Source: Bacilli bacterium
GTDB taxonomy: Bacteria > Bacillota_I > Bacilli_A > RF39 > UBA660
NCBI GenBank assembly: GCA_017541325.1
Contig: JAFXZI010000014.1
Span: 45,741-109,740, forward strand
Length of the DNA stretch: 64,000 bases
Reading direction: 5' to 3'
Numbering within the stretch: position 1 is the stretch's first letter; each line of letters begins with the position of its first letter. Of this stretch, positions 47,087-57,556 are shown in pieces. The notes beneath the pieces were generated by a model. It was given only the letters and a program-made list of their open reading frames with translations. It was not told the origin of the DNA and searched no databases. Both the position numbers and the translations under genes were made by a program.

Positions 47087-47803
47087 TCACATCGTTTTAT
47101 AGAACTCTATTATTTTATCTAAAGTATCAAAATCAATTGTCTCTTTACTGTCACATAAACTTTGACTTGGATCATAATGAACTTCAATTAATAGTCCATC
47201 CGCTCCTGCTGTTAAAGCAGCACAAGACATAGATTCAACCATGTAAGATAGTCCACTAGCATGAGATGGATCAATTATTATTTTATAATCTGTATTATTC
47301 TTTATATATGGAATCGCTTGTAAATCAAGTATATTTCTAGTTTCATTTGAAATAGTATTTCTAACTCCTCTTTCACATAAAATAATATTTGTATTACCTT
47401 CTCTTTTTATATATTCTGCTGCTTTAATCCATTCATTATAAGAAGCTGCAAAATTTCTTTTTAAAATAACTGGAGTTTTTGTTTTTCCTACTTCTTTTAA
47501 CAATTCATAATTATACATATTTCTTGTACCTATTTGAATTATATCTATTTTATCTCCGTACTTTTTAACCTGTTCAATAGTAGTTAACTCAGTAACTATT
47601 TTAATATCTAGTTCTTCTTTTAATTTAAGAAGCATTTCCATACCCTCATCTCTTAACCCTTGAAAAGAATTGGGATCAGTTCTCATTTTAAAAGTTCCAG
47701 CTCGAAAATATTCAATTCCTCTTTCTTTTAAAAGAGATGCTATTTTTTTAATCTCATCATAACTTGCGAAAGTACATGGACCAGCAATAATTATTTTATT
47801 CAT
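47087..47803 (-). CDS. 3-deoxy-7-phosphoheptulonate (DAHP) synthase, class I-beta core / KDO8PS-like
   Basis: 238 aa with AGPCTFAS, FRAGTFKMRTDPNSFQGL, QIGTRNM and IDPSHASG. No other aro genes nearby. Confidence 0.75.
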   Translation of the reverse strand: MNKIIIAGPCTFASYDEIKKIASLLKERGIEYFRAGTFKMRTDPNSFQGLRDEGMEMLLKLKEELDIKIVTELTTIEQVKKYGDKIDIIQIGTRNMYNYELLKEVGKTKTPVILKRNFAASYNEWIKAAEYIKREGNTNIILCERGVRNTISNETRNILDLQAIPYIKNNTDYKIIIDPSHASGLSYMVESMSCAALTAGADGLLIEVHYDPSQSLCDSKETIDFDTLDKIIEFYKTM

Positions 47804-47921
47804 AATATCACCCTCTACATTTTTATTATATCACTATTGTTTTACAATAATATACATTAAAAAGACTAAAATATTTACGTAAACAAATTATATTTGATAT
47901 GATTAAATTGAGATGATAAAT

Positions 47922-48734
47922 ATGAATAAAAACAAATTAATAATAGTTAGTATTATTTGTATCTTATTATTTTCTTTTAGTTTTTATTATATATCTTTTA
48001 ATAAAGAGAAAAATAATAAAGAAATTAATAAAAAAGACGAACCAATTATAAATAATGAAAAAGATGATAATAAGAAAGATGAAGAAACGCAAGTAATAGA
48101 TAGTACAGAAACAAAAGATGATAAACAAGAAGTAACCGAAACAAATACTAATACAACTACAAACAATACTAATACTACTAAAGAAACAACTACTAATACT
48201 AAAAAGAGTAATACAACTTCTACTAGCAAAAGTAATACAACAAAAAAGAGTAATACTAATACTAGTACAAATACAAAAAAACCAACTAGTCAAAATAATA
48301 CTAATCATTCTAGTAGTACTACTCAACAAAATAATAACACAAGCACTAGCAGTAACAACAATAATACAAGTAGTAGTAATAACAACACTTCTACTACACC
48401 ACCAGAAACACCTTCAACACCTACAATTACATATTCTTGTCCTAGTGGATATACTCTAAATGGTACTAAATGTACAATAACTGTAAATGCTAGTTTAGTA
48501 TGTCCAGATAATACAACGGAATCTATTAATGATAGTTGTATCAATCTAAGTGAAGGGTATGAAAGTCAAAGCGAAGAATGTCCAAGTGGATATATTATGA
48601 TTAAAATGATTGGTATTGGTATACCTGATAAATATATGTGTCATCCTGCACACTCAAAAGTATATAGATGTGAAAGTGGTTATACTTTAAGTAATAATAA
48701 ATGTACTAAAACAATTGATGCAACACAAAATTAA
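47922..48734 (+). CDS. membrane-anchored secreted protein: Thr/Asn/Ser-rich stalk plus Cys-repeat C-terminal domain
   Basis: N-terminal anchor LIIVSIICILLFSFSFYYISF and a ~110-aa T/N/S low-complexity region. Three C-x-SGY-x-[LM]-x(4,5)-C motifs (CPSGYTLNGTKC, CPSGYIMIKM, CESGYTLSNNKC). The start is ambiguous between 47913 and 47922. Confidence 0.6.
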   Translation: MNKNKLIIVSIICILLFSFSFYYISFNKEKNNKEINKKDEPIINNEKDDNKKDEETQVIDSTETKDDKQEVTETNTNTTTNNTNTTKETTTNTKKSNTTSTSKSNTTKKSNTNTSTNTKKPTSQNNTNHSSSTTQQNNNTSTSSNNNNTSSSNNNTSTTPPETPSTPTITYSCPSGYTLNGTKCTITVNASLVCPDNTTESINDSCINLSEGYESQSEECPSGYIMIKMIGIGIPDKYMCHPAHSKVYRCESGYTLSNNKCTKTIDATQN

Positions 48735-48764
48735 AACTATTAACTTAATGTTAATAGTTTTTTA
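48735..48764. terminator. bidirectional terminator between convergent genes
   Basis: 10-bp stem aactattaac/gttaatagtt (48735-48744/48750-48759) with T-runs on both strands. Confidence 0.7.
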
Positions 48765-49454
48765 TTTGGTATGATTTCTAATTGTACTTTCAGATTTTAC
48801 TTCAGCAATATCCCTATCTAATAATTGATAATCAGCACGTAATCTTTTTTGACTTTGAAGCGGTAATAAAACATTATCTAATGAAACAAATCCACTCATA
48901 GTATGAATAATACTATAATTATCTTCTTTAAAAGAATTTGTACCAACAAATACTTTTTCATGTTTAGGATCTTTAAAAGATAAATACTTCGTTTTATCCA
49001 AACTATCTAGACTTCGACATATAGTAATAACTTCAGGTCTTGTTTCATATAAAGATTTATCTAGTATTTCAAATCCATAAGTTTTTAATAAATATAGTAA
49101 AAATGGTTTTCTTTGTTTAGGATTAACTCCTAAAAAATCATATCCATTATTAAGACACATATCTATCCATGAAGCAACCAAAAAAGAACCAATATTTAAA
49201 TCGCGAAACTCAGGATTTACTTTTATACCTATAAAATCACTTCTTTTTTGTTCATGATCTAAATAGAAATATAAATATCCTTGCATCACTAATCTGTCTC
49301 CAATAGGTGAAAAAGCATTTATGTAAAATTTAGGGCGATGAGAACCATCATCAAAAGATCTTCTTAAATATAATTTTTGATCATAATTTCCTGAAAATAC
49401 ATCATCTTTATATATTATTTCTTCCCCTTCAGGAATTTGTTTAAAAGTATCCAT
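48762..49454 (-). CDS. GNAT-like (acetyltransferase-fold) protein with a C-terminal extension
   Basis: ~230 aa. IGIKVNPEFRDLNIGSFLVASWIDMCLNNGY...KPFLLYLLKTYGFE resembles GNAT motif A/B with a degenerate RxxGxG. ATG 49454 follows AGAGGTG, which directly abuts the TAA of the upstream gene. Confidence 0.5.
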   Translation of the reverse strand: MDTFKQIPEGEEIIYKDDVFSGNYDQKLYLRRSFDDGSHRPKFYINAFSPIGDRLVMQGYLYFYLDHEQKRSDFIGIKVNPEFRDLNIGSFLVASWIDMCLNNGYDFLGVNPKQRKPFLLYLLKTYGFEILDKSLYETRPEVITICRSLDSLDKTKYLSFKDPKHEKVFVGTNSFKEDNYSIIHTMSGFVSLDNVLLPLQSQKRLRADYQLLDRDIAEVKSESTIRNHTK

Positions 49455-49464
49455 ATGCACCTCT

Positions 49465-52400
49465 TTAATTTCTACTAACAGTTCTATCAGTTGTAAGAGA
49501 ATCTGTTAAGTGTGTTGATCTATCTTGTATTCTTGTTTCTGTACCTTTCATATATTTTCTACAAGCTTCAACCATATTACGGTATCCCTCTTCTCTCATA
49601 TTATCTGATACAAATTCATCAAATCCTTTTCCATAAAAGTTTCTACCAAAGTCATATACTTTATATTTTTCTTTAAATTCTTCAAAAGATACCATTCTTC
49701 CATCAGGAGTTAAAGCAGCTGATAAGAAACTTCTACAAGCGTCAGTAAAACTTCCTCCATTTTGTAAAATCCAGTTTTCTACACCAACTCCACCTAAACC
49801 TCCTGTACTATCTGGAGAATGTGCTGGTTTATAACATTCATTTTCTTTTAAGAACTTTTTAGCAAATATAATATTATCTAGTACTCTCTGATATTTTAAA
49901 GGATCTTGTCGTTTAATATTTTCTAATCTATCTTTTAAACATTCATCTGTACTATAAAAATCCATTTCATCTTTTTTAACGTAAGATATATCTAAATCAA
50001 CCGGTTCTTCAAGTCCTGGAATAACTACTCCTTTTAACCTTAAATTACCATTTGCAAGTACTTGTCCATCTTCTACAGCTTTTTCATAATTAATTCCTAA
50101 TTTAGCACATATAGTTTTACTTAATTCTTCTGGTTTTTCACGTACATCTATTCTCATAATAAAATCAAAGTCACTTGTTATTTCTGTATTAGTTCCTCTT
50201 CCAGTTGAACCTGTATCGATTAAATCTACTCCTCCTAAAGTTAAATCTTCAGATTGAGATGAACTAAATCTTAAACCTCTTTCACTCATAGCTTCAGCAA
50301 CAACTCTATTAATATGAGCTCTTTTGTTATTAGAGTCTTCTATTAATTTTTGATTATTATAATCTGGAACATCATCTAAATGAGATGAGAAAGTATATTC
50401 TTCACATCCATATCTAGATAATCCAGACATTTTACTTCTTATTAAATCATATTCTTCTGGTGTAAATAGTAGTTTCCCAGTATTTTTATCATATACCGGA
50501 ATATAAAAACCATTTAAAGCGATTGCAAATTTAGTATCTTCAACAAGCATTTCTCTTCTTTTTAATTCATCTTCATTTAGATTATCTGTATCACCTTTTT
50601 TTATAGTAGGATCAATTATGACATAGTCTATATCACAAGAACCAAATCCAGTTCTAATTCCCCATTCAATTCCTGTTGAAAAGACTTCTTTTCCATAACA
50701 TACTTCAGAAGACTTCTTAGTATCTGCATCTCTAGTCACTTTAAATCTTCCATCATTTTTAATAACAAACCAAATTGGTCCCCATCCACTAGAATATGAA
50801 TTATCTACTCTATCTTTTACTTTTCTTTCTTTTCCAATTCTTGTAAGATCTGTATCACATGGAGTTTGATCACTTCCAGGAGTCCCTACCCCTAAATATT
50901 CTTTGGCTAGAGAACCATTTTGTAATATATCATATAAGAATTGTGTATCTCCAATTCCTTTTAAGAAATCTCCTTCTTCAAGTGAAATCCCTTCTCTTGC
51001 ATATCTTCTTCCTCTTATATCTGCTCTTGTTTTTGATTCATCCATCATTGTTTTTAGTTGTTCAAAAGATTTAATACCACCCATAAATCCAAACATTCTA
51101 ACAATTCTATCTGGAAGATCATATCTTGAAGTAGTTCCAAACAAAGAATGAAGTTTATTTAAATCTTCTTTAGTATCACCAGATAATTCGACTGGATGTT
51201 CTCTTCCTGCTTTTGATTGATTATAAACCGCCTCTAAATGTTTTAAAAAAGTAGTAAGTATCTTTTTATTTCTATCATCTAAACTCTCAATATCTACTTC
51301 ATTTGATGTTATTAGTAAATATAGAGCATTTCCTCTTTCAATAGTATTTAAATAATTTCTTAAAGATAGATTATTAGATTCTGCAGCTATTCTAATTAAA
51401 TCACCTAAAATAACCATATTTCTTCTTTCATCATCTATATTAGATAATGTTGGACTCATCATATCTTCTTTAACTGTTTCAAAATCAAATTCAGGATACA
51501 TTATTTTATATATTAAAAATCTTTTTGCCATTTCCGGAAGATTATTATGAATAAATACATTTTCTATTTTTGCAAGTTTATCTTCATAATTATCTGGATT
51601 ATTTAAAATTTGTCCTAGTATTTCACAAAAGAATTTATTTAATTCTTTACAATTGGAATTCTCCATATGTTTTTTTAAACACTCGTAAACTTCAATTAGT
51701 TTTGATGCTTTTTTATCATCTATACTAAGGAGTGAACCATCAGAAAATATTTTATCTATTAATACTCCAGCTGAATCATAATTACCTCTTGATATTTTAA
51801 TTAAAACTTCAAACATTGATCTTGAAATACCTAATTTTTCATAATCATATTCATCTAATAAATTCATATTATATTGTTCGATATATTCAAAAACATGTAA
51901 TAGGTTAATTTTACCAATAAACTCTCTAAAATGATCTTCATTAAACATTAATTCCCCTGATTTACTAAGTCTAAATACTTTATTAAAATCTATTGTTTCA
52001 TTTTCTTCATCATGAAAAACATGTCGTCTAAAATCCATAAATAAATAATATGGATAATAAGATGACTCTAATATTTTTAATTCTACTTCTGTTAAATGTT
52101 TTGCAAGTTCTGGTATTACTTTACCATCTTGAATAAATGGCCTTGATGTAGATTCAAACGGATCAATCAATTCATATAACTTATCATTAACTAATAAATA
52201 ATATCCATCAATAGAAAATGCTTCTTTTATATTATTTCTATTTAAACTCCCTTTTTTTAATAAATTCTTAATTAAACTAAAATATTCATCTACATTAGAT
52301 TTTCTTTTATAGTTACCATCTCTAACAACAGTAATAAATTTAGAAACATCTTCTCCAAATAGTTTTTTTATAAAATCACTTGAAAAAGTATTTTTACGAA

Positions 52401-52914
52401 AATAAAAATTTATATTTCCATCAATAAAATAATCAGCACCTTTACTTAATAATAAATCATAGAATTCTGATTTAATTTTATTATTTTCATCAAATATATC
52501 TGAAATAGTTAATCCTTTAAATTTTAATAAATATGTAAGTACACATCCTAAAAGTGCTCTATCATTTGGTTTAAAAGACTTAGTTAATTCTCTAAACGCT
52601 TCTGCTTTTTTTAAATCTTCTTCACTAAAAGAGTTTTCCCAGTTAACACCAAGATTAGATAAGAATTTTTGAACATCAGGTGATAATAAAATAGCCGGAT
52701 TTCCATTAAATGTTCCATTTGAATTAATGAAATCTAATAAATTTTGTGCTGATAAATGTTTTTTATTTAAAATTTTAGAAAAAGAATCTGTAACTGATGA
52801 ATAATCATAATAATGACTAATTGTTTCTCTAAGTTCATCTAATGGTCCTCTTCTTAATAATCTTTTAAATCTTCTTTTACCATATAAAAACCATGTAAAA
52901 GCATTATATCGCAT
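49465..52914 (-). CDS. large cytoplasmic protein (~1149 aa) with a C-terminal Pol-beta-superfamily nucleotidyltransferase plus class-I CCA-adding/PAP-like helical domain
   Basis: ATG 52914 follows GGTGA; the ORF-track start is a GTG 4 codons upstream. NTase signature DLIDTGSTGRGTNTEITSDFDFIMRID (nt 50164-50211) and third acidic strand PVDLDISYV. Next comes FAKKFLKENECY...GGLGGVGVENWILQNGGSF. No TM or signal, and no motif recognised in the first ~850 aa. Confidence 0.65.
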   Translation of the reverse strand: MRYNAFTWFLYGKRRFKRLLRRGPLDELRETISHYYDYSSVTDSFSKILNKKHLSAQNLLDFINSNGTFNGNPAILLSPDVQKFLSNLGVNWENSFSEEDLKKAEAFRELTKSFKPNDRALLGCVLTYLLKFKGLTISDIFDENNKIKSEFYDLLLSKGADYFIDGNINFYFRKNTFSSDFIKKLFGEDVSKFITVVRDGNYKRKSNVDEYFSLIKNLLKKGSLNRNNIKEAFSIDGYYLLVNDKLYELIDPFESTSRPFIQDGKVIPELAKHLTEVELKILESSYYPYYLFMDFRRHVFHDEENETIDFNKVFRLSKSGELMFNEDHFREFIGKINLLHVFEYIEQYNMNLLDEYDYEKLGISRSMFEVLIKISRGNYDSAGVLIDKIFSDGSLLSIDDKKASKLIEVYECLKKHMENSNCKELNKFFCEILGQILNNPDNYEDKLAKIENVFIHNNLPEMAKRFLIYKIMYPEFDFETVKEDMMSPTLSNIDDERRNMVILGDLIRIAAESNNLSLRNYLNTIERGNALYLLITSNEVDIESLDDRNKKILTTFLKHLEAVYNQSKAGREHPVELSGDTKEDLNKLHSLFGTTSRYDLPDRIVRMFGFMGGIKSFEQLKTMMDESKTRADIRGRRYAREGISLEEGDFLKGIGDTQFLYDILQNGSLAKEYLGVGTPGSDQTPCDTDLTRIGKERKVKDRVDNSYSSGWGPIWFVIKNDGRFKVTRDADTKKSSEVCYGKEVFSTGIEWGIRTGFGSCDIDYVIIDPTIKKGDTDNLNEDELKRREMLVEDTKFAIALNGFYIPVYDKNTGKLLFTPEEYDLIRSKMSGLSRYGCEEYTFSSHLDDVPDYNNQKLIEDSNNKRAHINRVVAEAMSERGLRFSSSQSEDLTLGGVDLIDTGSTGRGTNTEITSDFDFIMRIDVREKPEELSKTICAKLGINYEKAVEDGQVLANGNLRLKGVVIPGLEEPVDLDISYVKKDEMDFYSTDECLKDRLENIKRQDPLKYQRVLDNIIFAKKFLKENECYKPAHSPDSTGGLGGVGVENWILQNGGSFTDACRSFLSAALTPDGRMVSFEEFKEKYKVYDFGRNFYGKGFDEFVSDNMREEGYRNMVEACRKYMKGTETRIQDRSTHLTDSLTTDRTVSRN

Positions 52915-52947
52915 TAATATCACCACACTTTATTATTATCTATTTTA

Positions 52948-52956
52948 ATTATAACA
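52948..52956 (-). promoter_or_regulatory. putative extended -10 promoter (TGtTATAAT) of the NTase/GNAT-like operon
   Basis: The minus strand reads agtcgTGTTATAATtaaaa, about 30 nt upstream of the start and downstream of the tRNA terminator. Confidence 0.45.
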
Positions 52957-53002
52957 CGACTAAAGATTTAAATAATTCTATTTGACAACTAATCCGTAAA
53001 AC

Positions 53003-53034
53003 AAAAAACAAAAAAAGTCCTCAAAAAGGACTTT
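53003..53034 (-). terminator. rho-independent terminator of the tRNA operon
   Basis: Stem agtcct/aggact (53016-53021/53027-53032), followed by TTTTTTTGTTTTTTG on the minus strand. Confidence 0.75.
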
Positions 53035-53044
53035 AATAACAACA

Positions 53045-53121
53045 TGGTGACCAGTACGGGATTCGGACCCGTGTATCCTGCCGTGAAAGGGCAGTGTGTT
53101 AAACCGCTTCACCAACTGGCC
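53045..53121 (-). tRNA. tRNA-Glu (anticodon UUC), CCA encoded
   Basis: Hand-folded cloverleaf. Acceptor GGCCAGU/ACUGGUC, anticodon arm CUGCC-CUUUCAC-GGCAG, T arm ACGGG-UCCGAAU-CCCGU, then A-CCA. Confidence 0.9.
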
Positions 53122-53126
53122 ATAAA

Positions 53127-53203
53127 TGGCGCCTCAACTGGGACTTGAACCTAGGACCCCTTGATTAACAGTCAAGTGCTCTAACCAACTGAGCTATTGA
53201 GGC
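53127..53203 (-). tRNA. tRNA-Asn (anticodon GUU), CCA encoded
   Basis: Acceptor GCCUCAA/UUGAGGC, D arm GCUC-AGUUGGUUA-GAGC, anticodon arm CUUGA-CUGUUAA-UCAAG, then G-CCA. Confidence 0.9.
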
Positions 53204-53206
53204 AAC

Positions 53207-53283
<77 letters not shown>

Positions 53284-53323
53284 ATACTTACAACTTCTTC
53301 TCTCAAATCAGTCATACTTCTAA

Positions 53324-53352
53324 ATTGTATAATAAGAAATAGAAAAATGCAA
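53324..53352 (-). promoter_or_regulatory. sigmaA-type promoter of the tRNA operon
   Basis: TTGCAT (53352-53347), a 17-nt spacer, then TACAAT (53329-53324), about 40 nt upstream of tRNA-Ile. Confidence 0.6.
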
Positions 53353-53367
53353 GTATTTTTTTCTTTT

Positions 53368-54012
53368 TTATTTAATGTCAAAGTCTTTTACTTTGCCATA
53401 ATCCTTATATTCTAATTCAACTATTACCTTTCTTGCTGCTTCTCCTCTTGCAATAGCATAATTAGTATAATCAATAGTTACTTTACTTATATGATTATCC
53501 TTATATTTTATTTTAATTGTATTTAGACTTTTATCATTTACTTCAATATCATATGCTAAAGCAAAATTAGTAGTTGAAAGTTTATATATTTTATCTTTTT
53601 TATCATATTCACTCATATTAATTATTTTATTAATTTCATTTATATTAAAATAATCAATATAAAAATAAGGTTTTTTAGTTAATACATAATCATTATCTTT
53701 TTTTATTAAAGCAATATCTTTATATATATAATAATCATTTTCTTCTTTATCTTTAGTTACTCTAAATGATTCTTTATCATTGAATTTTTTTCCTTCATAT
53801 ATATAAGTATCATCATTAATAGTTAACTTATAAGTATAATAATAATTATTTTTAGTAAGATTATCTTCTTTAACAGGATTTTCTTGAATTTTAGAATCAT
53901 TTATTCTTACTATTACTATCATAAAGATAATTATTAATAAATAAATAGCACCAACTACATAATTCTTTATTCTCTGTTCTTTCTCAGTTTCTTTTTTTGT
54001 TTTCTTTTTCAT
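53368..54012 (-). CDS. hypothetical membrane-anchored protein (214 aa)
   Basis: Basic N-terminus and one TM helix (YVVGAIYLLIIIFMIVIV), then a Lys/Asp/Tyr-rich ectodomain. Its start abuts the fmt stop. Confidence 0.55.
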   Translation of the reverse strand: MKKKTKKETEKEQRIKNYVVGAIYLLIIIFMIVIVRINDSKIQENPVKEDNLTKNNYYYTYKLTINDDTYIYEGKKFNDKESFRVTKDKEENDYYIYKDIALIKKDNDYVLTKKPYFYIDYFNINEINKIINMSEYDKKDKIYKLSTTNFALAYDIEVNDKSLNTIKIKYKDNHISKVTIDYTNYAIARGEAARKVIVELEYKDYGKVKDFDIK

Positions 54013-54013
54013 T

Positions 54014-54961
54014 TTATTCCCCTTTATTAAAGATTTTTCCTAATAATTTATCTCCATCATGTCCATTAAAATAATCCTTCATAAGTACTCTTTTACCACC
54101 AGCAAATTTTATATCTGTAATTATTACTTCTCCATCTTTACAAGCAACACCAATTCCATCTTTATATATTTTTCCAATTTCACCTAGTTGTTTTTCTGTA
54201 TAAAAATCATTTGTTTTACGAGAATTATATATCTTTACTATTTCTCCATCTAACACTGCATATCCTCCTGGGAATGGAGATAACGCTCTAATTTGGTTAT
54301 ATACAGTATTAGCATCTTTACTAAAATCAATTAACTCATCATCTCTCGTAATAATTGGTGCAAAAGTAGCTTCACTATCATTTTGTTTAATACTTTCATT
54401 AGTACCATTAATAATATCAGGTAATGTTTTTAAAAGAAGATCTCTACCTACTATAGATAATTTATCATGTAATGTTTCAAAATTATCATCTTCTTTAATT
54501 TCTACTACTTCTTTAGATATCATATTTCCTGTATCCATATGTTCATCCATATACATTATAGTGATTCCAGTTTCTTTTTCTCCATTTAATATTGCTCTTT
54601 GAATTGGAGCTCCACCTCTATATTTTGGAAGTAAAGATGCATGAACATTTATACAACCAAGTTTAGGTGTTTCAAGTATCTCTTTTGGAATTATTTGACC
54701 ATATGCACAAGTTACTATTAAATCTGGTTTTCTCATTGTTACTTCATTATATTCTTTTCTTATTTTTTCAGGTTGAATAACAACTATTCCATATTTTTCA
54801 GCTAATAACTTAACTGGACTTTTTCTTAATTCTTTATGTCTACCTACTTCTTTATCAGGTTGAGTAACAACTGCTATAACATTATAATTATCTATTAAAC
54901 TTTGTAAAATAGGTACACAAAAATCAGGAGTACCCATAAAAATAACATCTATCTTTTTCAA
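54014..54961 (-). CDS. fmt: methionyl-tRNA formyltransferase
   Basis: IDVIFMGTPDF and HASLLPKYRGGAPIQ. I place the start at TTG 54961 (GGTGA RBS), giving 315 aa; the hydrophobic ORF-track extension is unlikely. Confidence 0.9.
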   Translation of the reverse strand: MKKIDVIFMGTPDFCVPILQSLIDNYNVIAVVTQPDKEVGRHKELRKSPVKLLAEKYGIVVIQPEKIRKEYNEVTMRKPDLIVTCAYGQIIPKEILETPKLGCINVHASLLPKYRGGAPIQRAILNGEKETGITIMYMDEHMDTGNMISKEVVEIKEDDNFETLHDKLSIVGRDLLLKTLPDIINGTNESIKQNDSEATFAPIITRDDELIDFSKDANTVYNQIRALSPFPGGYAVLDGEIVKIYNSRKTNDFYTEKQLGEIGKIYKDGIGVACKDGEVIITDIKFAGGKRVLMKDYFNGHDGDKLLGKIFNKGE

Positions 54962-54985: not shown

Positions 54986-55019
54986 ATAATAAAAACTAAT
55001 AATCAATTAAGATTATTAG
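54986..55019 (-). terminator. rho-independent terminator after the 846-aa gene (overlaps the stop)
   Basis: 9-bp stem ctaataatc/gattattag (54996-55004/55011-55019) with a T-rich run on the minus strand. Confidence 0.6.
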
Positions 55020-57556
55020 TTTAATTCTGTAGGTGGTTCTTCCAAAGCTTGTTCACCATCTAATTCTCTTTTTTCTCCAATTGTTGTTGTATTTACTTCT
55101 GTCATCATAACTTTAACAGTTTCTCCCTCTTTATCTGGTGTAACATTAGAGGTTTTATGTGATCTATATCTTTTTGCAGTTGTTGAATTATCATAAGTAG
55201 TCTTACTACTTGAATAATCTTTTTCAGCAATTTCTGCAGCTTTTGATTTTACTTGCCACTCAGTATAAGCATTACTTCTTCTCTCGTTATATGCTTCTGT
55301 TGATTCTCCTTCATATTGACCAGTTTCAATTACTTCACGATATTTATTCTCTGCAGCTTGTGCAGCGACAATAGCATTTTTCAAATTATCTCTACTTGTT
55401 TCCAGTGCCTTTCCACCTAAATTAGTTTTTCTATATTGAGCATCAGCTCTACTTTTGTTAACACTATTTTGGAAGGCTCTATTTACACTTCCTTTTAATC
55501 TATTAGCATCTAATTGAGTCTCACTATCAATTGTATTCCAAGCATTTCTTAATTGGTCGTTCGCAGCACTTCTATATCTTTCGTTCATACCACGAACACC
55601 TTCTTTAAGACTTCCTCTAATTCCAGCACCACTAGCAAGTCCTGATACTAAACCAGATCCAAATCCTAAAACACCACCAGTTACATTTCCTAAGAAACTA
55701 CCATTATGTGTATCAAGTCCAAAGAATTTATTTAAGTATTTAGGTGACTGATAAACAAATAGTAATAAGCCAACTATTAAGAATGATTTTAAATATAAAA
55801 GTCTAAGTGGCGTTATACCAGTACCTTCTGCACCTTCCCAAGTAATAAATAAATCATTTATTTTTATTTCAGAAGCTAAATATAAAATCATATACATTAA
55901 GCCAATTTTAATAAATAAATCTACAAATGTAATTGCTGTTTCTTTTAACCATTCTTTTAATGGATCATTTTCATCTCTATATGGACTAATATTAAGAAGG
56001 ATTGGAATTGGTGCTAACATTTCTAATACTAAAAGTCTAAAGAACCTAACTCCAGCACTTACTGTTATTCCAACAAGAAGGAATAATGTAATCATTCCAA
56101 CTATAGTAGATAATAAATATCTATATTCATAACTATATCCAGGATTTTTACCATCTCTTCCAAATGGACTTACATCATTTATATGTTTTACAAAATCATC
56201 AATTGATGCAATATCTTTACTTCCATCAATAGATGCAAATTCTTGTTTTTTATTAGTATAATTTGGATGAAAGAATGGAGATAATACAACTACTGCTAAA
56301 TCATCCGATATTTTTTCTATATCTTTCTGCGCTTCATCTTCGTTTTGACCCAATAATACTTTTGGAACTATTGGTATAAAAGTATATTGAATTCTATATG
56401 CAAGTTCAAATAAACCAGGAGTCATTAATAAAAGTATTAACATTGCAATTGTTTTAAATATTAAAGTTCTACTTCCTTTAAATCTATCCGTTAATTCATC
56501 TGGATTAAACATATATCTTATAAATGTTAAACTAAGTCTAAATAGCATTATAATACCTAAAACTACATATATCTTATTTCTAACATTACTAACAATATCT
56601 GTATATATTCTAAGTCTTGCTATATCGAATAAACCTTGAATTACCCAAATAATAGATGAATATATATAATAATCTAAAGTAAAGAATACACTTCTTACAA
56701 CATTAACAAATTTATATCCTTTAAATATTGTTAATTCTGTAGATTGAACATTTATATTTCCTAGAACTGCACTGCTATATATTTCTCCAGTTTCATAAAG
56801 TAATAACGCTTTATTTTCTGATACAGTAAGAGATACTAAGTTATTATTACCAACTTTCATTTCATTAGATATATAATATGTTTTTTTATGTTTTCCTCTT
56901 AAATCAAATATATATATTACATTTCCATTTTTCTCAACAGAATCAAATATCTTTTCTCCAGTAGAATTATGAGTTATTAAATAAACATATCCCGTACTAT
57001 AACTTAAATCATTTCTAGTACCTCTAATATCTACATCAAAATTATTTTCTAACTTTTTCTCTTCGCTATAGACACTACCTTTTTTACCATCGTATGTAAA
57101 ATATCTATTAAATCTATTAGAAAAAGCAATATGACTACCAGATAAATTTATAGTACTTGTCTCAGTTAAAGTTTCCATATCAATAACTGAATATTGTCCA
57201 CTGCCTTTACTTGCTAATAAAGTATTAGTATTAGGATCATATGAAATACTTGCACTACTACTTAAATTAAATCTTTTTTCTTCTAAAACACTATATGTAT
57301 TTTTATCTAAAAACATAAGTGTACCATTACCTCTAGATACAACTAAATAATCTCTAGTTGAAGCAATAGATTTAAAAGTACTATTACCACCTAAGCCATC
57401 AGTCTTAGATAGTTTTTTTTCTAAACTAATATCTATTACTTCTGTAAGTCTTTTTTTAGATAATCCTCTTAAGTTATTTTTAATATCTTCAACCGCAAAA
57501 ACACTTACAGGAATCATAAGTAATAATAAAATTAATACTAAATATCTTCTCCTCAT
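55016..57556 (-). CDS. large polytopic membrane protein: signal peptide, beta-propeller-like ectodomain, VirB6/TrbL-like multi-TM core, Gly-rich segment, coiled-coil/disordered tail
   Basis: 846 aa. Signal peptide ends ...MIPVSVFA. Repeated strand-like blocks (YLVVSRGNGTLMFLD, LLASKGSGQYSVID, VIYIFDLRG, ALLLYETGEIY). About 8 TM helices (res ~285-640), then GNVTGGVLGFGSGLVSGLASGAGIRGS. AAGGTGG RBS. The family assignment is tentative. Confidence 0.55.
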   Translation of the reverse strand: MRRRYLVLILLLLMIPVSVFAVEDIKNNLRGLSKKRLTEVIDISLEKKLSKTDGLGGNSTFKSIASTRDYLVVSRGNGTLMFLDKNTYSVLEEKRFNLSSSASISYDPNTNTLLASKGSGQYSVIDMETLTETSTINLSGSHIAFSNRFNRYFTYDGKKGSVYSEEKKLENNFDVDIRGTRNDLSYSTGYVYLITHNSTGEKIFDSVEKNGNVIYIFDLRGKHKKTYYISNEMKVGNNNLVSLTVSENKALLLYETGEIYSSAVLGNINVQSTELTIFKGYKFVNVVRSVFFTLDYYIYSSIIWVIQGLFDIARLRIYTDIVSNVRNKIYVVLGIIMLFRLSLTFIRYMFNPDELTDRFKGSRTLIFKTIAMLILLLMTPGLFELAYRIQYTFIPIVPKVLLGQNEDEAQKDIEKISDDLAVVVLSPFFHPNYTNKKQEFASIDGSKDIASIDDFVKHINDVSPFGRDGKNPGYSYEYRYLLSTIVGMITLFLLVGITVSAGVRFFRLLVLEMLAPIPILLNISPYRDENDPLKEWLKETAITFVDLFIKIGLMYMILYLASEIKINDLFITWEGAEGTGITPLRLLYLKSFLIVGLLLFVYQSPKYLNKFFGLDTHNGSFLGNVTGGVLGFGSGLVSGLASGAGIRGSLKEGVRGMNERYRSAANDQLRNAWNTIDSETQLDANRLKGSVNRAFQNSVNKSRADAQYRKTNLGGKALETSRDNLKNAIVAAQAAENKYREVIETGQYEGESTEAYNERRSNAYTEWQVKSKAAEIAEKDYSSSKTTYDNSTTAKRYRSHKTSNVTPDKEGETVKVMMTEVNTTTIGEKRELDGEQALEEPPTELN

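Follow-up and report, generated by a model that had tools for sequence, protein, structure and literature searches.

Two closely spaced genes on the minus strand of a 64,000-nucleotide stretch of an uncultured Bacilli genome (contig JAFXZI010000014.1, positions 45,741 to 109,740; hereafter the window) raise the question of whether they work together and, if they do not, what the larger of them encodes. A reading made from the letters alone (hereafter the sequence-only reading) had described a two-gene operon in which a protein of about 1150 residues, ending in a nucleotidyltransferase (NTase), is coupled to a GNAT-like protein as a possible tRNA-modifying conflict module. The comparisons described here lead to a different picture. 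The large gene is solitary and accessory, and it is co-transcribed with the GNAT gene only by accident of position. Its product carries, in addition to the NTase, a predicted ADP-ribosyltransferase (ART) domain, and it belongs to a large family that has so far escaped description. The features on which the first part of the argument depends are as follows.

49465-52914, minus strand: large gene, 1149 amino acids (aa), coordinates including the stop codon; accessory, probably a single-gene insertion
48762-49454, minus strand: GNAT-family acetyltransferase-like gene (the partner), 230 aa, identical to database protein P0010; apparently resident and functionally independent of the large gene
49458-49464, minus strand: Shine-Dalgarno sequence AGAGGTG of the GNAT gene, directly behind the large-gene TAA (49465-49467)
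52948-52956, minus strand: extended -10 promoter TGTTATAAT, predicted to drive both genes now and probably the ancestral promoter of the GNAT gene
53014-53034, minus strand: intrinsic terminator of the tRNA cluster, detected by a terminator scan and kept in the comparison locus L092
53045-53283, minus strand: cluster of tRNA-Ile(GAT), tRNA-Asn(GTT) and tRNA-Glu(TTC), a neighbour outside the unit; the same cluster is present in L092

The physical layout had been described correctly. Two tightly spaced minus-strand open reading frames (ORFs), an extended -10 element and flanking terminators are present in the sequence, and the ribosome-binding site of the GNAT gene abuts the stop codon of the large gene as claimed (TAA, AGAGGTG, then ATG at 49454, leaving a gap of 10 nt). 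The start of the large ORF is the ATG at 52914 and not the GTG at 52926 of the program-made ORF list; this ATG is taken as the start because the Met that it encodes is where the homologues begin in the alignment, and P0001 in the database matches all 1149 aa without a difference.

The proposal of a coupled NTase and GNAT module was put to a test of co-conservation that had been set beforehand, and it failed. A homologue of the partner was found by tblastn in none of the 85 large-family loci (6-10 kb flanks), and in reverse the 12 further partner loci that were examined, which represent 8 distinct contexts, all lack the large gene. Clustering of all family neighbours over the 85 loci yielded no conserved neighbour of any kind. 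A His_Phos_1 gene lies 9-12 nt downstream of the closest large-gene relatives (P0002 in locus L001 and RUG11788 in L013; 57-68% identity), and these His_Phos_1 genes (L001 3936-4577; L013 3833-4474) occupy the position held here by the GNAT gene. The adjacency to a tRNA cluster, to which the sequence-only reading had also given weight, is not conserved either, as tRNA genes lie near none of the seven other family loci checked.

The origin of the tight spacing is apparent from L092, the locus of the closest partner homologue (85% amino acid identity). This locus is colinear with the window, with 86-87% DNA identity on both flanks, and its order is a gene of 214 aa, then the three tRNAs of the window with their terminator, then the TGTTATAAT promoter and finally the partner gene. 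The large gene is cleanly absent from it, 51 nt corresponding to 3551 nt in the window, and its distribution among relatives is patchy. In L093, a second locus without the large gene, the partner gene likewise has TGTTATAAT immediately upstream. Because the same element precedes the GNAT gene in both of these loci, TGTTATAAT is best understood as the partner's own promoter. The large gene is a gene-sized presence/absence difference between the GNAT promoter and the GNAT start codon. The large gene is likewise missing from partner loci that are more distant, so that parsimony favours its gain by insertion in the lineage of the window. The L092 partner sits alone behind the same tRNAs and promoter, and thus the close spacing in the window, which had been taken to suggest coupling, is best explained as a side effect of the insertion of a whole gene into the leader of the partner. 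More generally, tight operon spacing can arise when one gene is inserted into the leader of another, and it need not imply a shared function.

If the large gene stands alone, its function must be sought in its own family. Scanned as a single sequence, the large protein had no significant match in Pfam, NCBIfam, PADLOC, PHROGs or the Protein Data Bank (PDB). A word-indexed homologue search returned 9 relatives; the same search with the N-terminal 424 aa returned nothing, the query protein itself included. When the relatives were aligned, conservation began near residue 425, and a family profile of residues 425-1149 was scored exhaustively against 1.84 billion representative proteins. This search recovered 1214 representatives at E<=1e-3, of which 824 reach E<=1e-30, so that the family, clustered at 50% identity, has 1214 clusters or more; when one genome was scanned for each species, 412 matches were obtained. 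Nearly all matches span the whole profile (positions ~5-705) in proteins of 650-6114 aa, and the family thus consists of a constant C-terminal core of about 700 aa behind variable N-termini. Its taxonomic spread is patchy, overwhelmingly in metagenome-assembled genomes (MAGs) of uncultured gut and rumen Bacilli, with some members in Candidatus Saccharibacteria and Clostridia, and one MAG contains two copies (L016, L037). Searches of 50,697 phage records, 72,556 plasmids, IMG/VR contigs and BFVD found no relatives, though the last of these gave weak matches to polyvalent-protein-associated domains. None of Pfam, NCBIfam, PADLOC and PHROGs describes the family, and the PDB contains no protein related to it in sequence, in agreement with the novelty that had been suggested.

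The N-termini of 149 representatives fall into two main classes by blastp single linkage, a major one with 122 members and a minor one with 12 that includes the window protein. The N-terminus of the latter is detectable by phmmer only in P0001-P0004, that is, in its three closest relatives besides itself, and in Pfam it gives only sub-threshold matches to DUF3899 and DUF2247. The RRHVFH string of the window protein, noted earlier as a possible HEPN-like Rx4H motif, is not conserved even in the closest homologues and is attributed to chance. In the major class (representatives P0130-P0275) a motif similar to P..F...YP..FL....P.E...KFY recurs. Among 32 long family members scanned with Pfam, none had a match; one giant member (4932 aa) contains a transglutaminase core. 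The large protein had been said to have neither a signal peptide nor a transmembrane helix, and a hydropathy scan agrees, finding no N-terminal signal peptide or transmembrane segment in any of 155 representatives. A C-terminal hydrophobic anchor occurs in 7 of the 155, and eight representatives extend more than 100 aa beyond the core.

The architecture of the core was approached through an AlphaFold2 (AF2) model of residues 425-1149, built from a 62-sequence alignment. The model has a mean predicted local confidence (pLDDT) of 90.5 and a predicted template modelling score (pTM) of 0.89, values which indicate a fixed arrangement of three core domains: in core numbering a helical domain (1-217), an alpha/beta domain (220-410) and an NTase with its helical domain (430-725). 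As modelled, the ~700-aa core is a fixed helical, ART and NTase unit in which both predicted active sites are conserved throughout the family. The large protein is accordingly divided as follows.

51586-52914, minus strand: N-terminal region, aa 1-443; minor class, no recognisable domain
50992-51585, minus strand: conserved all-helical domain, aa ~444-641, with motifs NNLPxxxK, SPxL and DLxxxxxSNNxS
50410-50991, minus strand: predicted ART-fold domain, aa ~642-835, with candidate active-site residues K652, D687-T688-D689, E743 and R754
49468-50355, minus strand: predicted Pol-beta-type NTase with PAP/OAS-type helical domain, aa ~854-1149, recognised by motif, AF2 model and Foldseek

The C-terminal domain is, from its model and motifs, a Pol-beta-type NTase of the class I CCA/PAP/OAS kind. 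The Pol-beta motif hG[GS]-x(9-13)-Dh[DE]h and a third carboxylate are present, as had been recognised from the letters. More specifically, the residues concerned are G902-S903, D915-x-D917 and D973/D975 in VDLDIS, followed by a GGLGGVGxENWxLQNGGSF helix; D915 and D917 are the residues formerly numbered D919 and D921, that count having run from the GTG start. The signature is intact across the family, with G-S and D-x-D invariant in 137 members and D975 conserved in at least 90% of them. Foldseek against the PDB supports both the fold and the suggested kinship, the top matches (E 1.7e-3 to 5e-3, probability 1.0) being class I CCA-adding enzymes (3ouy, 1r89, 1uet), PAP (1fa0, 1f5a), OAS1 (4rwp), CdnC (6p8v_G; TM-score 0.51 to the target) and Cid1. 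About 300 columns align to 3ouy, 1r89, 1f5a, 4rwp and 6p8v_G, covering a catalytic alpha/beta fold and then a PAP/OAS-type helical domain. Curated sequence models of the NTase group gave no match in Pfam or NCBIfam, and the best hit of a profile search against the PDB was OAS2 at E 0.44.

The preceding ~850 residues had been assigned to no family, a statement that is true at the sequence level and that does not hold structurally, since residues ~642-835 adopt a split beta-sheet ART fold in the predicted structure. The nearest structural neighbours are Tpt1, which acts on RNA phosphate ends, and DarT, which acts on single-stranded DNA; the match to Tpt1 (7yw4) is limited to the 120-residue NAD lobe. 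Other ART structures matched, with their listed figures, are CteC (6.5), SopF (6.2), OspC3 (5.7), LT (5.3) and PARP1 (5.2), and TreX and SidE/SdeC are also among the matches. From the DSSP assignment of the model and conservation, K652 (K or R in the family) ends strand 1, D687-T-D689 starts strand 2 and E743 starts strand 5, while R754 lies in a GIRTG motif; K652, E743 and R754 are each conserved in at least 90% of 137 sequences. By strand order and conservation, these residues probably occupy the canonical ART active-site positions. A search of PDB sequences with a profile built from the predicted ART domain found no ART, and Pfam likewise gave none; thus, the relationship is visible at the level of the fold only. 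The overlooked ART domain changes the mechanistic picture of the large protein.

The helical domain that precedes the ART (aa ~444-641) is conserved in family alignments as strongly as the catalytic domains and is confidently helical in the AF2 model. It has no match to solved structures when searched by Foldseek against the PDB, and it may represent a third functional site.

A fixed fusion of an ART with a PAP/OAS-type NTase has no description in the curated family libraries or the literature searched. In current work on bacterial immunity, both ARTs that act on nucleic acids (DarT, Tpt1, CmdT-like toxins) and NTases (CD-NTases, MenT) hold a central place, and a protein in which both are hard-wired together could bring to light a new modification of nucleic acids or a defence that relies on a single protein. 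The family is moreover concentrated in uncultured, often small-genome gut Bacilli and in Saccharibacteria, where most large proteins are without an assigned function.

The partner, by comparison, is a gene of familiar type. Its earlier identification as a GNAT is upheld by PF00583 (Acetyltransf_1), which is matched by 21 of 30 members of the GNAT family (best E 2.4e-6), and by a search of the family profile against the PDB, which found Naa50 (E 9e-4). Motif A reads R-x-x-N-x-G, with Asn replacing the first Gly, and the 230-aa protein is on these sequence criteria a divergent GNAT. At least 217 homologues of constant length are known, and their identity of 51-85% is as expected for a lineage-resident gene. 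They are usually monocistronic with variable neighbours. The variation is seen at the GNAT loci L007 8001-10359, L011 4939-8693, L094 1735-4693 and L096 4001-5300. Ku/LigD end-joining genes adjoin a GNAT homologue in two of the distinct contexts, and a gene for a divergent LtaS does so in two contexts. In one lineage (L096) a small PF06042 nucleotidyltransferase gene lies 14 nt downstream of the GNAT homologue. A recurrent link between GNAT and NTase by way of this neighbour was considered and rejected, as hhalign gave it a probability of 0.5% against the NTase of the large protein.

The reading preferred here, tentatively and at a little short of an even chance, is that the large protein is a self-contained, one-protein, accessory and conflict-related dual enzyme that probably acts on nucleic acid. 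The protein would be cytoplasmic and would have two activities, the ART using NAD+ and the NTase using nucleoside triphosphates. The ART domain would ADP-ribosylate its substrate, most probably a nucleic acid, and the NTase domain would add nucleotides to a ribose hydroxyl without a template. Nucleic acid is the likely substrate because the nearest ART structures are Tpt1 and DarT and because the NTase falls in the group that extends the 3'- or 2'-OH of RNA and nucleotides. The two domains probably share a substrate, or one prepares or regulates the other, and the class-specific N-terminus may set specificity or hold the enzyme off until a trigger arrives. A role in conflict, such as phage defence, is favoured over housekeeping because the family is patchy, diversified, sometimes duplicated, absent from a close relative and without fixed neighbours.

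Several observations weigh against this preference. Both enzyme activities are predicted, from fold and conserved residues, and the ART residues were assigned from strand positions and conservation rather than from a residue-level superposition; their pattern, [K/R]...D-T-D...E, differs from the canonical H-Y-E and R-S-E triads. The locus lies outside any defence island, its neighbours in the window being the housekeeping genes fmt, gltX and DAHP synthase together with VWA/TPR genes, and the large gene has the same base composition as the surrounding genome. The best PADLOC match is an oligonucleotide-cyclase model at E 0.014. A potentially toxic ART with no adjacent antidote would also need some mechanism of autoinhibition, which is hypothetical.

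Other explanations of the family must be weighed against the same evidence. It is rather unlikely that the protein repairs the ends of RNA, in particular of tRNA, in maintenance or counter-defence, with a Tpt1-like ART removing or ADP-ribosylating a 2'- or terminal phosphate after cleavage and a CCA/PAP-like NTase rebuilding the 3' end. The top structural matches are exactly Tpt1 and the class I CCA-adding enzymes, KptA/Tpt1 and template-independent NTases are parts of RNA repair systems (PMC9503650), and a tRNA cluster adjoins the gene in the window. However, only the NAD lobe of Tpt1 is matched, with no Pfam Tpt1 match and no recognisable RNA lobe; the NTase region of ~295 aa is without the body and tail domains that hold tRNA (TM-score 0.33-0.37 normalised to the CCA-adding enzymes); neither an RNA ligase, a 2H phosphoesterase nor any other repair gene is a conserved neighbour in the 85 loci; the adjacency to tRNA genes is missing from all seven other loci checked; and the tRNA-Glu of the window carries its own encoded CCA end. 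Even less probable is a role as a protein-modifying effector or toxin, comparable to that of polyvalent proteins or of the SidE, CteC and DrrA effectors, in which a protein of a competing cell, a phage or a host cell would be both ADP-ribosylated and nucleotidylated. The inclusion of CteC, SopF, OspC3, TreX and SidE/SdeC among the ART matches, the very long and variable N-termini (some giants reach 3000-6100 aa) and the weak BFVD matches to polyvalent-protein-associated domains all point in this direction, and polyvalent proteins of phages and conjugative elements do combine ART, GNAT and Pol-beta NTase domains (PMC5512222). Yet the ARTs of those proteins are of the H-Y-D type and their NTases minimal (PMC5512222), in which they differ from the domains found here; the phage, plasmid and viral collections searched (50,697 phage records, 72,556 plasmids, IMG/VR and BFVD) contain no relatives, and the family is accompanied neither by signal peptides nor by genes for secretion systems or immunity.

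It is similarly improbable that the rigid ART-NTase core performs a coupled chemistry of an undescribed kind. OAS-type enzymes are able to adenylate NAD+. In one version of the coupled chemistry, the NTase would extend or cap a moiety derived from NAD+ or ADP-ribose, or an ADP-ribosylated end of a nucleic acid; in another, a nucleotide signal made by the NTase would activate the ART of the same polypeptide, as a one-protein analogue of the cyclic-oligonucleotide-based antiphage signalling system (CBASS). In both, the class-specific N-terminus would be the sensor of the trigger. The original proposal, that the NTase and GNAT proteins of the two genes act jointly on tRNA acceptor ends as a toxin-antitoxin or defence module, now appears highly improbable. 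The shared promoter, the 10-nt gap and the flanking terminators speak for it, as does the one other lineage in which a GNAT homologue is followed by the small PF06042 NTase gene; that protein, however, has no detectable homology to the NTase of the large protein. The separate occurrence of the two genes (GNAT homologue in 0 of 85 family loci, large gene in 0 of 12 GNAT loci), the lone GNAT gene behind the same promoter in L092, the His_Phos_1 gene downstream of the closest large-gene relatives and the identity of 51-85% over at least 217 GNAT proteins, like that of a lineage-resident gene, decide against it.

The surroundings of the unit complete the description of the locus. On the partner's side it is bounded by one further feature.

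48726-48768, strand not applicable: AT-rich hairpin between convergent genes, with a perfect 12-bp stem of about -13 kcal/mol; probable bidirectional terminator

The terminator scan missed this hairpin because it has too few G-C pairs, and a consensus promoter scan did not list TGTTATAAT because there is no properly spaced -35 element. An Rfam scan of 47500-54500 gave the three tRNAs only, which rules out a leader RNA or riboswitch. Around the large gene there are no flanking direct or inverted repeats and no integrase nearby, and its treatment as a recognisable mobile element was dropped for these reasons. A compositional island was likewise rejected, the GC content being homogeneous at 0.23-0.31 and that of the large gene not distinct. 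In the whole window (1-64000), the minus strand carries 48 of the 51 ORFs that reach 150 aa or more, and over the profiled 40-60 kb of this low-GC (~27%) genome the GC skew stays negative throughout; strand bias and skew together fit a single replichore of a low-GC Bacilli genome. The gene at 47913-48734 is the sole plus-strand gene among ORFs of at least 150 aa in that part of the window. In its product, a hydrophobic segment at the N-terminus is joined by a long low-complexity stretch rich in Thr, Asn and Ser and by Cys repeats at the C-terminus (C.SGY.L....C); the only match is weak and cEGF-like. Adjoining fmt, the minus-strand gene at 55016-57556 encodes a protein of 846 aa that has no significant match in Pfam. 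Its N-terminus is signal-like, it contains several hydrophobic segments, and its C-terminal third is charged and resembles a coiled coil.

By motif and fold the NTase belongs to the Pol-beta superfamily, and by fold the ART belongs to the ART superfamily; the narrower systems compared below differ from the family in architecture or context. CBASS is defined by a CD-NTase and its effector; here there is no Cap-type effector nearby and no conserved neighbour in 85 loci, and the PADLOC Cyclase match stands at E 0.014. MenT/AbiEii systems consist of a small toxin with a co-occurring antitoxin, whereas the present protein is a multidomain one of 1149 aa and the adjacent gene is absent from 85 loci. 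GNAT toxins such as TacT and AtaT are paired with antitoxins and patchily distributed, unlike the usually monocistronic 230-aa partner with its variable neighbours. In DarTG, the ART is accompanied by DarG; here there is no DUF4433 match and no adjacent DarG-type macro-domain gene, the downstream gene being GNAT or His_Phos_1. Sequence identity to Tpt1/KptA and DarT is 8-15%, and the first active-site position is Lys/Arg instead of His. Tpt1/KptA also has an N-terminal RNA lobe with an Arg-His-Arg-Arg tetrad, in place of which no recognisable RNA lobe and no Pfam match were found.

With class I CCA-adding enzymes, PAP, OAS1 and CD-NTases, the C-terminal domain shares the predicted catalytic fold with GS...DxD and a third Asp, followed by a helical domain with a G-[FL]-[SG]-G...E-x-[WL]...GSF-like helix. 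It differs from them in that no Pfam or PDB sequence match is better than E 0.4 and in being fused downstream of an ART. Class I CCA-adding enzymes in particular are of ~440 aa with head, neck, body and tail, as against ~295 aa here and a TM-score of 0.33-0.37 normalised to those enzymes. SidE effectors similarly couple, in one polypeptide, an ART with a second phosphoryl- or nucleotidyl-processing domain. Foldseek matches to SdeC/SidE are weak, at a probability of 0.04; in place of a phosphodiesterase the large protein has an NTase as its second domain, and no Dot/Icm-type secretion system is nearby.

The nearest concepts are the polyvalent proteins (PMC5512222) and RNA repair by KptA together with an NTase (PMC9503650). 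Polyvalent proteins (Iyer et al. 2017, PMC5512222) are also very large and multidomain, they bring together unrelated enzymes including ART and Pol-beta NTase domains, and they carry uncharacterised 'large polyvalent-protein-associated' regions. They are, however, encoded by phages, prophages and conjugative elements, whereas the present family is chromosomal, with no relative found in the phage, plasmid or viral collections. The subtypes of ART and NTase differ as well, and the three-domain core is fixed rather than shuffled. In the large gene of the window, folds that are individually well known are joined in a fixed combination for which no earlier description was found, and the proteins that share it make up a large family.

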